Assembly: GCA_965198235.1 (NCBI GenBank)
Contig: OZ240248.1
Coordinates: 4,384,001 to 4,448,000, forward strand
DNA from: Candidatus Poribacteria bacterium
GTDB lineage: Bacteria; Poribacteria; WGA-4E; WGA-3G
DNA: 64,000 nt
Direction of reading: 5' to 3'
This document shows, in pieces, positions 30,555 through 34,173 of the stretch; position 1 is the stretch's first letter; each line of letters begins with the position of its first letter. Below the pieces are notes generated by a model. The model did not search any database. It was not told where the DNA came from and was given only the letters and a program-made list of their open reading frames with translations. Both the position numbers and the translations under genes were made by a program.

Positions 30555-30684
30555 TACAGCGTTTGAATCACCAGAAAACCTTTGCCCCGCCTCCCGAAAT
30601 GCGCCATTTCGTGCAATGTAGCATCACACTTGCCCTATTTCGTACCATTTTCGTCAAGAACACCAGTAGAACGACTATTCAGAA

Positions 30685-30700
30685 CGGCATGGAACTTGCT
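30685..30700 (+). promoter_or_regulatory. Sigma-54 -24/-12 promoter
   Basis: CGGCAT-GGAAC-TTGCT, GG-N10-GC, 160 bp upstream of the LarA-domain gene. Confidence 0.6.
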
Positions 30701-30859
30701 TTAACAACTATCGTGTAAGAGAACCAGGCATACAATACTCTTGCAATCAACTCTGGATTTGCCACACTTTTTTTGACAAAAAGACTTGCAATGCTCCTAT
30801 AACTATGTTAATATAGATTAAAAACCAGAAAATCTACGGACATCAGTTGAAACCGTCGC

Positions 30860-32419
30860 ATGAAATACTTCACCTACTTCGGCAACCATCTCATCAACGC
30901 GAAACTCCCAGACAATTCAGAGGTCTACTACGCGAAGCCTCCCCTGCCGGGAATTAAGCGCGCCACACTGCCTGAACGGACGCAGCGTGCTTTTGAAAAC
31001 CCACTTGAAATGCCACCCCTGCGAGAACTCGTCAACGGCAATTCTAAAGTGCTCATCCTATTTGACGATAACTGCCAACCTTTCCCACCTACGAAAAAGC
31101 CGGATATGCGGCAGATCATGATCGAGACGCTCCTGAAGATGCTCTATAACTACGGCGTGGAGAAAAAGAACATCCAACTGATGTGCGCTGTCGCGTTGCA
31201 TCGAAAGATGAAGGAGCACGAACTCGCCTATATGCTCGGGAAAGACATCATGGACGAGTTCTATCCGCATCAACTCCGAAACTTCGATGCCGAAGATGCA
31301 GAACAAATTGTTCAGGTAGGACACACAGAAAAAGACGAAATCGTTGAGACAGATAAGGCAGCCCTCGAATCCGATTTGGTGATTTACGTTGACATGATAC
31401 AAATCCCGCTCAATGGTGGGCATAAGTCCGTCGCGGTGGGTCTCGGCACATATAACTCTATCGCACCGCACCACTCGCCGCACATGACATCAGAAAGTCC
31501 GCACGTCATGCAACCCGAAGGTTCGCACATGCACGCTTGCATCGAGCGGATGAGCCGTCTCATTCAGAAAGAGACACCCATTTTGGTGCTCGAAGCGGCG
31601 ATGAACAGTGCGATCTATCCATTTCATCTGCGCTACGTCGGGAAACCGAACCGTGACTGCAACATCGCAGAGAAGGTCCTGAAAACCTTCACACCGGCGA
31701 CGCTATCGCTTCTGCCTGAATCGTTACGTTACAAGATTCTCAAGAGCGTACAGACGGACTACGAACCGATACAAATCAACGCAGGGGACATTGATGCCGT
31801 TCACGCGAAAACCTTAGCGTCAATGAAGGACCAGTTGGCAATAGACATCCCACGACAGTTCAGCACATTGGTATTCGGGCTTCCCGATATGAGTCCCTAC
31901 GCCGTTGATGCGCGTATCAATCCTGTCTTGGTGGTGAGCGACATCTTAGGCTACGTCTTCAACTGGTTCTATAATAAACCCATCATCAAAAAGAACGGCG
32001 TCGTTATTATTATGAACCCAACCTACGAGATATTCCATGAAGAGTATCACGTCGCTTACAAACAGTTTTACGATGAAGTCCTCGCCGAAACGACAGAACC
32101 TTTTGAGATGCAACAGAAGTTTCAGGAGAAATACGCAAAGGACGCGTATTTAATCGATTGCTATCGGAATAAGTTCGCACACCACGGTTTTCATCCGTTT
32201 ACCGTCTGGTATTGGGCGACATATCCGCTGAAATATCTCGCGAAGGTGATTCTCGTCGGTCCGAAGGAACCGAGAGTCGCGCAACAGCTCGGTGTTGATT
32301 GGGCAAAAAACTTAGACGATGCTCTTGCAATGGCACGCGAAATCTCTGGGGAGGACGATGTCGTTGCCTTGACGATGCCGCCGTTTTTCTATGCAAATGT
32401 TGGAGGCTCCAGTCAGTGA
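30860..32419 (+). CDS. Lactate racemase (LarA/DUF2088) domain protein
   Basis: LFDDNCQP, CAVALHRKM, NGGHKSVAVGL, HGFHPF; the last codons come from the inserted element. Confidence 0.75.
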   Translation: MKYFTYFGNHLINAKLPDNSEVYYAKPPLPGIKRATLPERTQRAFENPLEMPPLRELVNGNSKVLILFDDNCQPFPPTKKPDMRQIMIETLLKMLYNYGVEKKNIQLMCAVALHRKMKEHELAYMLGKDIMDEFYPHQLRNFDAEDAEQIVQVGHTEKDEIVETDKAALESDLVIYVDMIQIPLNGGHKSVAVGLGTYNSIAPHHSPHMTSESPHVMQPEGSHMHACIERMSRLIQKETPILVLEAAMNSAIYPFHLRYVGKPNRDCNIAEKVLKTFTPATLSLLPESLRYKILKSVQTDYEPIQINAGDIDAVHAKTLASMKDQLAIDIPRQFSTLVFGLPDMSPYAVDARINPVLVVSDILGYVFNWFYNKPIIKKNGVVIIMNPTYEIFHEEYHVAYKQFYDEVLAETTEPFEMQQKFQEKYAKDAYLIDCYRNKFAHHGFHPFTVWYWATYPLKYLAKVILVGPKEPRVAQQLGVDWAKNLDDALAMAREISGEDDVVALTMPPFFYANVGGSSQ

Positions 32420-32660
32420 CCCAATCCTAAAGGATTGGGCTTGTCCAAGATGGCAGCCACGCCTATCACTTGGACGAGGGTAACTCATTGACTACCGTAA
32501 TATATCGCAGTATCTCGGCGTGGCAGCCGAAACGATGTGTGTCAAACGGATATATCCTGTGGTCGGGTATATCCAAAGGATGCTCCCCAAGTCCCATTCC
32601 TCTCGGATACTGTGATCGGGATGGGGAAACATATACCCGCATTGCGGAGTTTTACCTGTT
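32412..32660 (+). ncRNA. omegaRNA/HEARO-like scaffold (3' end approximate)
   Basis: GTCAGTGA pairs with TCATTGAC (32485-32492); GGATGCTCCCCAAGTCCC...CTCT and GATGGGGAAACATATACC motifs, with CCCC/GGGG pseudoknot potential. Confidence 0.7.
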
Positions 32661-32858
32661 TTCCGAAAGACACCGTGTCAGGTCAAAGTAGCGGATAGTG
32701 ACAGTATCGGTGAACCGAAGCAGCACATCGGACGGAAATGCCTACGTGTTTGTGGCGAAAAAACAACACGCCCCCACTTCGGGGAAAAATCCTAAATTAG
32801 AAGGAGGCGGTGTTTCCTCCCCTGAATCAATTCAGGGGTTTCCACACCGAAGATTTTG
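32412..32858 (+). mobile_element. Non-autonomous IS200/IS605 (IscB-type) element without an ORF
   Basis: Left end GTCAGTGA plus hairpin CCCAATCCTAAAGGATTGGG; right-end hairpin CCCCTGAATCAATTCAGGGG; followed by ATGA; no TSD; removal restores a coupled gene junction. Confidence 0.8.
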
Positions 32859-33077
32859 ATGATTAAAGATTCCCCCATCGTTGAAGATATCCGACGTATT
32901 CGCAACAAGATTTCCGAGAAATTTGACCACGATATAGGTCGCTATATTGCCTACTTGCAGAGTGAGGCAGCCTCACGTCAAGCGAAGAAAGCTGCACAAC
33001 AGTCAAATAGTAGTGAAAATGGCCTCGCCAACACAGAAGACTACGATCAGAGGTCTAAGGAAACCAGGGTTAATTGA
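32859..33077 (+). CDS. Small hypothetical protein (antitoxin-like, PIVEDIRRIR..FDHD)
   Basis: Resembles small proteins usually found next to PIN toxins; the original RBS has been displaced by the element. Confidence 0.55.
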   Translation: MIKDSPIVEDIRRIRNKISEKFDHDIGRYIAYLQSEAASRQAKKAAQQSNSSENGLANTEDYDQRSKETRVN

Positions 33078-33114
33078 ACTTGCGAACCTATGAGCCCCAA
33101 AAAAGAGGAGTCTG

Positions 33115-34173
33115 ATGGAAGATACGGACTTTTTGATACCTACCAGCACTATCGGCAGTTACGCACCCCCGAGTTGGCTTTGCGTGACCTTAGAGGCAAT
33201 CGGACGCGGGGAACTCGGTGAAACCGACATTAACGAGACCTTCGACGATGCTGTTCGCACCGCCATCGCCGACCAAGAACGTGCTGGCGTTGACATCATC
33301 ACAGAGGGTGAGATGCGCCGACAAGACTTCGTGCTCGGTTTCTATGAACGGCTCACCGGGTTAGAGCAACTGCCTGCACCCAGAACACAGGGACCCGACG
33401 GACACGATCAACGCGGCAAATGGTTGCCTTCTGTTCCGCTCGCAGCTCCCGATGGTCTCGGTATCCTCGCAGAGTTTGAATTCGCGAAAAACGAGACGAC
33501 GAAACCGCTCAAGGTGACATGTCCCGGTCCGTTCACGCTCTCTGGACGTATTCAAACAGGTGGTATCTACAAGGAGCGACTTGAAGTTGCCTACGCCTGT
33601 GCGGAGATTATCAATACAGAACTCCGCCAACTCGTCGCCGCAGGCGCAGAATTCATACAGTTAGACGAACCCTCTTACGCCGTTTATCCTGACCGTCCTG
33701 AAGAGTTCGTCAAGCTTTTCAATCACACTGTTGAAGGTTTAGGGCGTAGCTCGCAAGCCCATATTGAACAGTCAGCAAAGATTGGACTGCATATCTGTTT
33801 CGGCAACTATCGCGGCAGAGCCGTCGGAAAACGTTCCTACCGTCCGCTCTTTCCCTATATTTTAGACGCAGATTTCGATCAACTCGCACTGGAATTCGCA
33901 AACCGAGAATTGGCAGAAATTGGATTATGGAGTGACTTCCCGAACGATAAAGAACTCGCCACAGGGCTCATTGATGTTAAAAACTACTATGTAGAGACAC
34001 CGGAGGATGTCGCAGCACTGCTCCGCGAAGCACTCAAGCACGTGCACCCTGAAAAACTCGCGATTACGCCGGATTGCGGCTTCAGCCAAACAGCGCGGTG
34101 GGCAGCTGCCGCCAAACTGAAAACGATGGTAGCCGGGACTGAAATTGTCCGCCGTGAACTCGCGGGATTTTAA
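33115..34173 (+). CDS. Cobalamin-independent methionine synthase II (single-barrel) family protein
   Basis: GVDIITEGEMRR, IQLDEP, HICFGN, PDCGF. Confidence 0.9.
   Translation: MEDTDFLIPTSTIGSYAPPSWLCVTLEAIGRGELGETDINETFDDAVRTAIADQERAGVDIITEGEMRRQDFVLGFYERLTGLEQLPAPRTQGPDGHDQRGKWLPSVPLAAPDGLGILAEFEFAKNETTKPLKVTCPGPFTLSGRIQTGGIYKERLEVAYACAEIINTELRQLVAAGAEFIQLDEPSYAVYPDRPEEFVKLFNHTVEGLGRSSQAHIEQSAKIGLHICFGNYRGRAVGKRSYRPLFPYILDADFDQLALEFANRELAEIGLWSDFPNDKELATGLIDVKNYYVETPEDVAALLREALKHVHPEKLAITPDCGFSQTARWAAAAKLKTMVAGTEIVRRELAGF

Follow-up and report, generated by a model that had tools for sequence, protein, structure and literature searches.

The 64,000-nucleotide window considered here, taken from the genome of a Candidatus Poribacteria bacterium (assembly GCA_965198235.1, contig OZ240248.1, positions 4,384,001 to 4,448,000 of the forward strand), carries at positions 32412-32858 of its plus strand a 447 bp element that has no recognisable protein-coding gene and lies between a LarA-like gene and a small open reading frame (ORF). 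The element is very probably a non-autonomous, protein-less member of the IS200/IS605-type transposons whose full-length relatives encode the RNA-guided nickase IsrB. It opens with an omegaRNA scaffold core (32412-32655), continues in a structured module of about 135 nt that stands in the place of the nuclease gene (32656-32789) and closes with a transposon end (32808-32858). The original prediction, made from the letters of the window, had described an IscB-type mini-transposon at this place; what it observed is confirmed and what it concluded is partly supported.

The boundaries of the element are defined by empty alleles. Positions 31700-33400 of the window were compared with 41 genomes including its own, 24 of which belong to the same genus. 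The 3′ part of the LarA-like gene is present in 22 of these 24, and none of the 22 matches extends into the element. Five of these genomes (G008, G002, G009, G018 and G014) have contiguous upstream and downstream matches, with GGAG(A/G)xTCCA joined directly to ATGATTAAAGA, a downstream side that begins ATGATTAAAG and zero target duplication. Because the two matches abut in five relatives, the element can be delimited as 32412-32858, inserted without target duplication, and the predicted 447 bp are thus exact to the base. The first inserted base, 32412, is also position 1 of the HEARO covariance model. A metatranscriptome contig of about 91% identity to the window, in which 32405 is joined to 32859 with six other letters between them, is the empty allele of a relative. 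The junction is occupied by other DNA elsewhere in the genus: G012 (locus L044) and G013 (L051) hold about 485 bp of different sequence with a small ORF (MRPKVYVETSVIGAY...), and in G024 (L047) REP-like palindromes fill the space after the LarA-like gene. Since relatives hold other DNA there, this junction appears to be a variable site and a general insertion hot spot.

Both termini have the properties of the IS200/IS605 group. The insertion lies beside a fixed tetranucleotide without a target-site duplication (TCCA followed by ATGATT), imperfect palindromes are located subterminally at both ends without terminal inverted repeats, and the element is devoid of a transposase in a genome that encodes Y1 (HUH) TnpA elsewhere. 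The host sequence ends in AATGTTGGAGGCTCCA, after which the element begins with GTCAGTGA and CCCAATCC-TAAA-GGATTGGG; the latter forms the 5′ transposon-end hairpin (32420-32439), and GTCAGTGA (32412-32419) pairs with the more distant TCATTGAC (32485-32492) in a closing stem. The 3′ end reads AAGGAGG CGGTGT ttcct CCCCTGAAT-CA-ATTCAGGGG tttcc ACACCG AAGATTTTG, followed outside the element by ATGATTAAAG. Here a compound hairpin (32808-32849) is composed of an outer stem (32808-32813 with 32844-32849) and an inner hairpin (32819-32838) and is trailed by the 9 nt tail AAGATTTTG. The fold z of this end is -2.9, and both end hairpins are preserved by compensatory changes across 20 aligned copies (helices 2, 20 and 21, the last two in the 3′ end). 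The end hairpins, the pairing of GTCAGTGA with TCATTGAC and the HEARO/omegaRNA-like motifs GGATGCTCCCCAAGTCC and GATGGGGAAACAT, both found in the element, are all as originally predicted.

At gathering thresholds no Rfam family is found in the whole window. Relaxed Rfam searches (32300-32950 with an E cut-off of 10, the loci of 19 relatives with one of 0.05) return only sub-threshold HEARO (RF02033) matches on the scaffold of the window locus and the 19 relatives' loci, and no family on the module. In the window the match extends over 32412-32655 and model positions 1-211 with 27.7 bits (E 9e-4 for 651 nt, 1.7e-3 genome-wide), and the closing stem GUCA...UGAC, the GGAUGCU...AGUCC loop region and the 3′ UUAC of HEARO all align. 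In the covariance-model comparison that had been suggested as a check, the whole model matches from the first base of the element, at a score far below the gathering score of 83. No copy in the genome reaches that score; the best match, with 68.4 bits, lies beside an IscB gene.

The family of the element is better defined by its full-length relatives. The genome contains seven RRXRR loci, including five uninterrupted isrB reading frames. Only one of the seven is a true IscB (621 aa, with RRXRR and HNH; C1:1473377-1474294, coordinates prefixed C1 being those of the genome). At the other six loci the product is 341-355 aa long. One of these six, a B-type locus (C1:734100-734800), is broken into frames of 185 and 173 aa and retains its upstream scaffold. 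The 341 aa protein that was scanned (C1:4954359-4955620) has RRXRR as its only Pfam domain and no HNH. Its best relative of solved structure is IsrB (8DMB, E 3.3e-32), with the DPGS, VED and HCVD motifs of RuvC aligned, whereas IscB chains match it at E 1e-11 or weaker and in the N-terminal part only. A PLMP/RRXRR region and a split RuvC without an HNH insertion, in about 350 aa, are the marks of IsrB, and the original assignment to the IscB type is thereby corrected.

Three isrB elements of 1262-1266 bp (C1:4954359-4955620, 1584115-1585380 and 4647858-4649122) start with GTCA(A/G)(C/T)(T/G)AC and a hairpin and end in the same compound hairpin and then ATGA. About 225 nt of these elements are homologous to the first 245 nt of the window element and their last 60 nt match as well, so that the transposon end of the window element also stands 3′ of isrB in three full-length elements. 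Likewise, both BLAST and profile searches match element positions 1-248 to about 225 nt preceding six RRXRR genes on the same strand. Because scaffold and ends match those of isrB elements, the window element can be described as an IsrB-type element without isrB, and its partner nuclease is most likely the IsrB nickase rather than IscB, as judged from sequence homology. That the RNA would instead serve the HNH-bearing IscB, which would make double-strand cuts at empty alleles, is the least probable of the alternatives considered here. One such IscB is indeed encoded in the genome, in the region C1:1473377-1474587, and HEARO is the IscB-associated RNA family, but the RNA upstream of this IscB, which is the best genomic HEARO match (68.4 against 27.7 bits), has no similarity to the element by BLAST or element profile, and the gene-bearing elements that share the ends of the window element all encode an HNH-less protein.

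The interior of the element has the signature of a conserved RNA and not of a gene. None of the five internal ORFs (53-73 aa) matches a protein family (best Pfam E 0.085), no ORF of at least 45 aa is common to the 20 aligned copies, and tblastn with the six nuclease proteins of the genome gives a best E of 0.3, in agreement with the predicted lack of an iscB or tnpA ORF. The middle part could be rejected as a recognisable isrB remnant on the same tblastn result. In contrast, the structural alignment of the 20 copies (67% mean column identity) yields a consensus fold of 104 pairs, 57 of which have compensatory changes. Paired cells amount to 94.8%, compared with 80.7% in shuffled alignments and 36-48% with slid partners, and none of 500 shuffles reaches the observed value on any of five measures, with the caveat that the consensus structure was derived from the same alignment that was used for counting covariation. 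Among the supported helices are three in the module (15, 16 and 18), besides those of the scaffold core and of the end hairpins and the closing stem GTCAG/CATTGAC. The module is as conserved as the scaffold and includes the near-invariant GAAGCAGC and GTGGCGAAAAAAC. It was found only in copies without a protein gene; no Rfam family corresponds to it, and it does not resemble the isrB products of its own genome.

A census of the genome with an nhmmer profile built from the 20 protein-less copies recovered three copies of the full 440-450 bp form, namely the window copy (full-length E 3e-119) and those at C1:1070729-1071181 and C1:4757286-4757722. A further copy (C1:2377106-2377458) keeps scaffold and end and lacks the module, and four short forms are reduced to the first ~86 nt plus the end. 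The profile also recovered the three A-type isrB elements, three B-type isrB loci, whose scaffold is related but whose far end differs, and about ten solitary end-like hairpins. The copy without module is wedged between GGAG and the ATG of a gene for a 410 aa PALP enzyme, whose N-terminus resembles tryptophan synthase beta and which is a gene that one would expect to be needed.

Beyond this genome, a two-motif pattern of the module was scanned in one genome per species and gave 75 loci. Of these, 58 match the whole-element profile, all in records titled Candidatus or uncultured Poribacteria, and at each of the 58 the module is found within a whole element; this set overlaps the earlier one of 20 relatives' copies. 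The remaining 17 loci, from other taxa, have no profile match and were taken as chance. The further copies with different flanks and a 3′ ATGA that had been expected thus exist. In the genomes of three relatives, copies that are 100% or 98-99.6% identical are found at loci with unrelated flanks, and because identical copies sit at unrelated loci it follows that the protein-less form has transposed recently in these relatives; in the window's own genome no recent transposition is visible. Three loci of G008 (L064, L067 and L075) share about 25 nt of extra sequence in the far-end hairpin, from which it appears that this variant end was still able to transpose. A copy in G014 (L066) carries about 125 bp of extra DNA between module and end.

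These data bear on the alternative that the element is an inert relic, an IsrB insertion sequence that lost its gene by internal deletion and is neither a guide RNA nor mobile in its own genome. The absence of a near-identical sibling in the genome speaks for it, the closest copy being 76% identical, as do scaffold insertions that are not present in the isrB-linked RNAs. The window copy nevertheless still forms 100 of the 104 consensus pairs, compensatory changes occur throughout the family and include the module, both ends and ATGA are kept in every complete copy, and relatives carry identical copies at different loci. Moreover, the lack of any isrB trace in the middle part by tblastn argues against a simple internal deletion. 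Taken together this makes a relic unlikely, and the preferred interpretation remains that of a protein-less element whose RNA and ends have been maintained.

Mobilisation would require a transposase supplied in trans. Six Y1_Tnp matches exceed the Pfam cut-off in the genome, beside one IscB and five uninterrupted isrB frames on the nuclease side. Three of the six are in tnpA-tnpB elements. Two of these IS605-type elements (1848 bp, 99% identical; C1:4381488-4381841, which lies about 2.2 kb before the first base of the window, and C1:4792784-4793137) possess an end hairpin, CCCAATCCTTTAGGTTTGGG, that is one base away from the reverse complement of the 5′ hairpin of the window element, and their left end has the same layout of outer stem and inner hairpin as its far end. 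Mobilisation in trans is plausible because the tnpA-tnpB elements share a near-identical end hairpin and end layout, and the two 99%-identical elements are candidate sources of TnpA. Three solitary Y1 genes (C1:3853757-3854101, 606918-607262 and 1898775-1899119) are flanked by arrays of GCACTCC-GCTG-GAGTGC-type palindromes and look REP/RAYT-like; the LarA junction of G024 has the same type of palindrome.

The position of the scaffold also specifies the presumed guide. In accordance with the omegaRNA arrangement the scaffold starts at the transposon boundary, so the guide would be flanking host DNA, here the 16-20 nt 5′ of the scaffold (32392-32411, plus strand), a placement based on model position 1 of HEARO at 32412 and on RNA-library contigs that span guide and scaffold unbroken. 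The 5′ flanks of the copies are mutually unrelated. At the 3′ flank lies ATGA (32859-32862), the putative transposon-adjacent motif (TAM) and insertion target, which adjoins 51 of the 51 distinct complete copies, that is those of the 58 loci with a complete end and distinct flanks; to locate their ends, the ATG closest to the profile-predicted end and no more than 6 bases from it was taken, so that the fourth base was left free. An overlapping set of 29 copies, composed of 26 protein-less copies and three with isrB and including one pair that is the same insertion in two genomes, has ATGA in 28 cases and ATGG in one. The predicted arrangement of a would-be guide in the upstream flank and ATGA in the downstream one accordingly holds. 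The published TAM of IsrB is 5′-NTGA-3′ downstream of a 20 nt target, and the 5′ guide of its omegaRNA is 20 nt long (PMC9581776); for GstIscB the motif is TTCAT in transposon orientation, corresponding to ATGAA on the RNA strand (10.1101/2023.03.14.532601). The ATGA flank agrees with both, and because it does, the excised joint of TGTTGGAGGCTCCA with ATGA would suit a guide from the upstream flank as a target.

Such a guide would depend on transcription from outside. A scan for sigma-70-type promoters on the plus strand of 30600-33300 found none, although this is a weak test, and terminator-like sites occur at chance level; the result fits the published need of IscB-type guides for outside transcription. 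Contigs that show 0-2 differences, from three metatranscriptome runs belonging to a single study, cross from 32411 to 32412 and extend from the LarA-like gene to about 32769. They start at 32166, 32383 and 32305 with depths of 100.5, 22 and 37.8, and neighbouring exact contigs in the same three runs have depths of 27.5/19.6, 4.3 and 2.7. Five exact contigs from a run of unrecorded kind are flat, at a depth of 75-88. As all runs are available as contigs, RNA ends, strand and level are unreadable and uncovered stretches are uninformative. The end of coverage near 32769 is shared by the run of unrecorded kind and probably marks an assembly break at the repeated end. These data are a hint that an RNA with guide, scaffold and module accumulates.

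ATGA also contains a start codon, which had led to the proposal that the target favours gene starts. Its ATG opens at least 70 codons in 20 of the 29 and in 33 of the 51 copies (overlapping sets). Of 18 such ORFs, 16 carry Pfam domains, often 4-23 residues past that ATG and from profile position 1-4, including TP_methylase/HEM4, MutL-family (PF13941), zf-HC2 (anti-sigma factor), YjgF, DUF4177, MatE, Cu/Zn superoxide dismutase, PPK2, the PALP enzyme and an S1-domain protein. In 19 of 44 copies the host has a Shine-Dalgarno (SD)-like motif no more than 16 nt ahead of the element, so that insertion between a gene's ribosome-binding site and its AUG, the situation seen in the window, is common. 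Compared with all 41,875 ATGA sites of the genome, 23% of which open at least 70 codons and 8% of which are start-like, the placement of the copies is in strong excess. The counts accordingly fit the proposal, but active targeting of start codons is unsupported, since in a crude control 41% of the sites that split no long ORF are start-like, against 13 of 29 elements by the same definition (p 0.39). The placement may require no more than selection against insertion within genes.

In the window the two flanking genes are affected at their adjoining ends. The LarA-like ORF (30860-32419, plus strand; Pfam Lar_N, E 3.4e-33) receives its final 8 bases, including the TGA stop within GTCAGTGA, from the element. 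As predicted, the element's own TGA ends the host ORF, giving a C-terminus of GGSSQ in place of the GGSND that empty-site relatives encode via the overlapping ATGATTAA. On the other side a 72 aa ORF (32859-33077, plus strand) starts at the ATG of ATGA. It matches no Pfam family, five relatives have homologous sequence immediately behind the LarA-like gene, and the insertion separates it from its own GGAGG ribosome-binding site. A 51-56 aa frame that reaches the 3′ end in 6 of the 20 copies is a vestigial isrB C-terminal frame. In the window (32698-32859, plus strand) 53 aa of it can be read from a GTG, since TCA replaces the stop normally present in the hairpin loop, and its terminal TGA shares bases with the ATG that follows (TGATG), as is typical of termination-reinitiation coupling.

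The far end itself carries a conserved motif. An SD-like tetramer, mostly within AAGGAG, stands directly 5′ of the outer stem in 27 of the 29 copies (AAGGAGG in the window, 32801-32807, at the 5′ foot of the end hairpin), and two end-truncated copies have an SD-like tetramer 12-13 bases before the ATG. The motif persists in protein-less copies, in which it has lost its role in coding for the C-terminus of IsrB, and as judged by eye it is missing from the matching place in the left end (reverse complement) of the same-genome tnpA-tnpB element. In predicted folds the SD-like motif comes to lie a median of 11 nt from the ATG instead of about 50 nt, and 13 nt or less in 24 of 29 copies. AAGGAGG may act in ribosome binding. 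In the parts of the HEARO/IscB literature that were covered, a ribosome-binding site in the transposon end was not found described, and only the Shine-Dalgarno sequence of isrB itself, inside SL7, is discussed in the text consulted of PMC9581776.

The location of so many copies exactly at the ATG of ORFs of at least 70 codons, the Pfam domains held by 16 of 18 such ORFs, many of them beginning shortly behind the ATG, and the conserved SD-like motif beside the outer stem could also be taken as evidence of domestication, in which the element would be a 5′-leader or intergenic RNA whose main role is to control or restore downstream translation for the host. This is very improbable. The orthologous site is empty of the element in all 22 same-genus genomes that hold the LarA-like gene, the family is present in multiple copies at unrelated loci with recent transposition, and in the crude control the start-codon placement does not rise above expectation. 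A more speculative proposal, tentative and on balance doubtful, is that the protein-less form constitutes an RNA-only OMEGA lineage, now independent of the gene-bearing form and adapted to a place exactly between ribosome-binding site and AUG of functional genes, with the far end as a portable ribosome-binding site and the module as a new RNA domain. If this were true, the conserved AAGGAGG, the hairpin and then the 9 nt before the ATG would be a structure-bridged ribosome-binding site that keeps the downstream gene translated, the 5′-leader position would ensure read-through transcription of guide and scaffold, and the module would do work that normally depends on the isrB mRNA, for instance 3′-end stability or the capture of IsrB in trans.

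For the element as a protein-less IsrB-type transposon, the following working is proposed. Three parts have been retained, namely the omegaRNA scaffold from the first base, the lineage-specific structured module where isrB would be, and the far end. The insertion took place immediately 5′ of ATGA, separating the LarA-like gene from the small ORF, and produced no duplication. Transcription of the LarA-like gene would run into the element and join the host guide, ending in TGTTGGAGGCTCCA, to the scaffold, for which there is partial RNA evidence. IsrB from an uninterrupted isrB copy elsewhere in the genome could then bind this RNA in trans, and the complex might recognise an empty joint, in which the guide match is followed by ATGA, and nick it, which would favour re-copying of the element from the sister chromosome, by analogy with TnpB and IscB. 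A Y1 TnpA, also acting in trans, would move the element to new ATGA sites.

Whether the RNA of the element is used by IsrB in trans appears evenly balanced, and homing at empty alleles, as suggested from the analogy, may follow. Several points weigh against this scheme. Restorative homing has been documented for TnpB and IscB and not, in the text consulted, for IsrB, which is a nickase (PMC13565253). The window copy, whose nearest genomic counterpart is only 76% identical, is therefore not a recent one, and it may have ceased to be served. The scaffold, which misses the HEARO gathering score, has an extra stem-loop of about 45 nt (~32530-32575) and the 3′ module, unlike the isrB-linked RNAs of the genome, and compatibility with these IsrBs is therefore unproven; variation of stem-loops among IsrB RNAs is described in the text consulted of PMC9581776. 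The tie of any transposase to the family of the element rests on sequence likeness, and the RNA-library contigs may stem from contaminating DNA, contig depth being a poor measure of expression.

Much of this concept is already in print, as far as the texts compared go, in the form of standalone omegaRNAs that act in trans, omegaRNA-bearing palindrome-associated transposable elements (PATEs), the dependence on read-through and an ATGAA-type TAM. Standalone omegaRNAs are described as mobilised without effector or transposase and working in trans, with 'biological role unknown' (PMC10691335; PMC9581776). Like the window element they are effector- and transposase-free mobilised loci in genomes that also hold effector-bearing loci. 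These RNAs (attributed to Altae-Tran et al. 2021) were tested with IscB, whereas the scaffold of the window element groups with IsrB-linked RNAs and is extended by the module. The PATEs of Geobacillus stearothermophilus 'often encode omegaRNAs' for use in trans, and IscB elements show an orientation bias with the upstream gene and have guides that depend on outside transcription (Meers et al., 10.1101/2023.03.14.532601). PATEs resemble the window element in being protein-less with ends as in nuclease-bearing relatives, and they need TnpA and nuclease in trans. Their IscB-type RNA, located at the transposon right end with its guide outside the element, is a further likeness. They differ in host and partner, G. 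stearothermophilus with TnpB or IscB as opposed to Poribacteria-titled genomes with IsrB, and in the text compared there is no mention for PATEs of an extra module or an SD-like motif at the end. The published DtIsrB-omegaRNA complex (8DMB; Hirano et al. 2022, PMC9581776) also has a long multi-helix scaffold, a 5′ guide and a downstream NTGA TAM, but its RNA ends, according to the text consulted, at its own start codon, whereas the window RNA is without a gene and runs into a different structured module.

The element represents a clean natural case of an omegaRNA that travels without its nuclease, with exact boundaries, empty alleles in sister species and IsrB in the same genome, and it extends protein-less omegaRNA elements to IsrB and to sponge-associated, Poribacteria-titled genomes. 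The genes for the PALP enzyme (tryptophan-synthase-like), a CobA/HemD fusion and an S1-domain protein appear to be still in use despite about 450 nt of structured RNA before their ATG. Two lineage-specific features are worth a bench test, namely the module in place of the nuclease gene and the SD-like motif of the transposon end, and if the transposon end does rebuild a ribosome-binding site, this would explain why ATGA is a good niche for elements that need transcription from outside.

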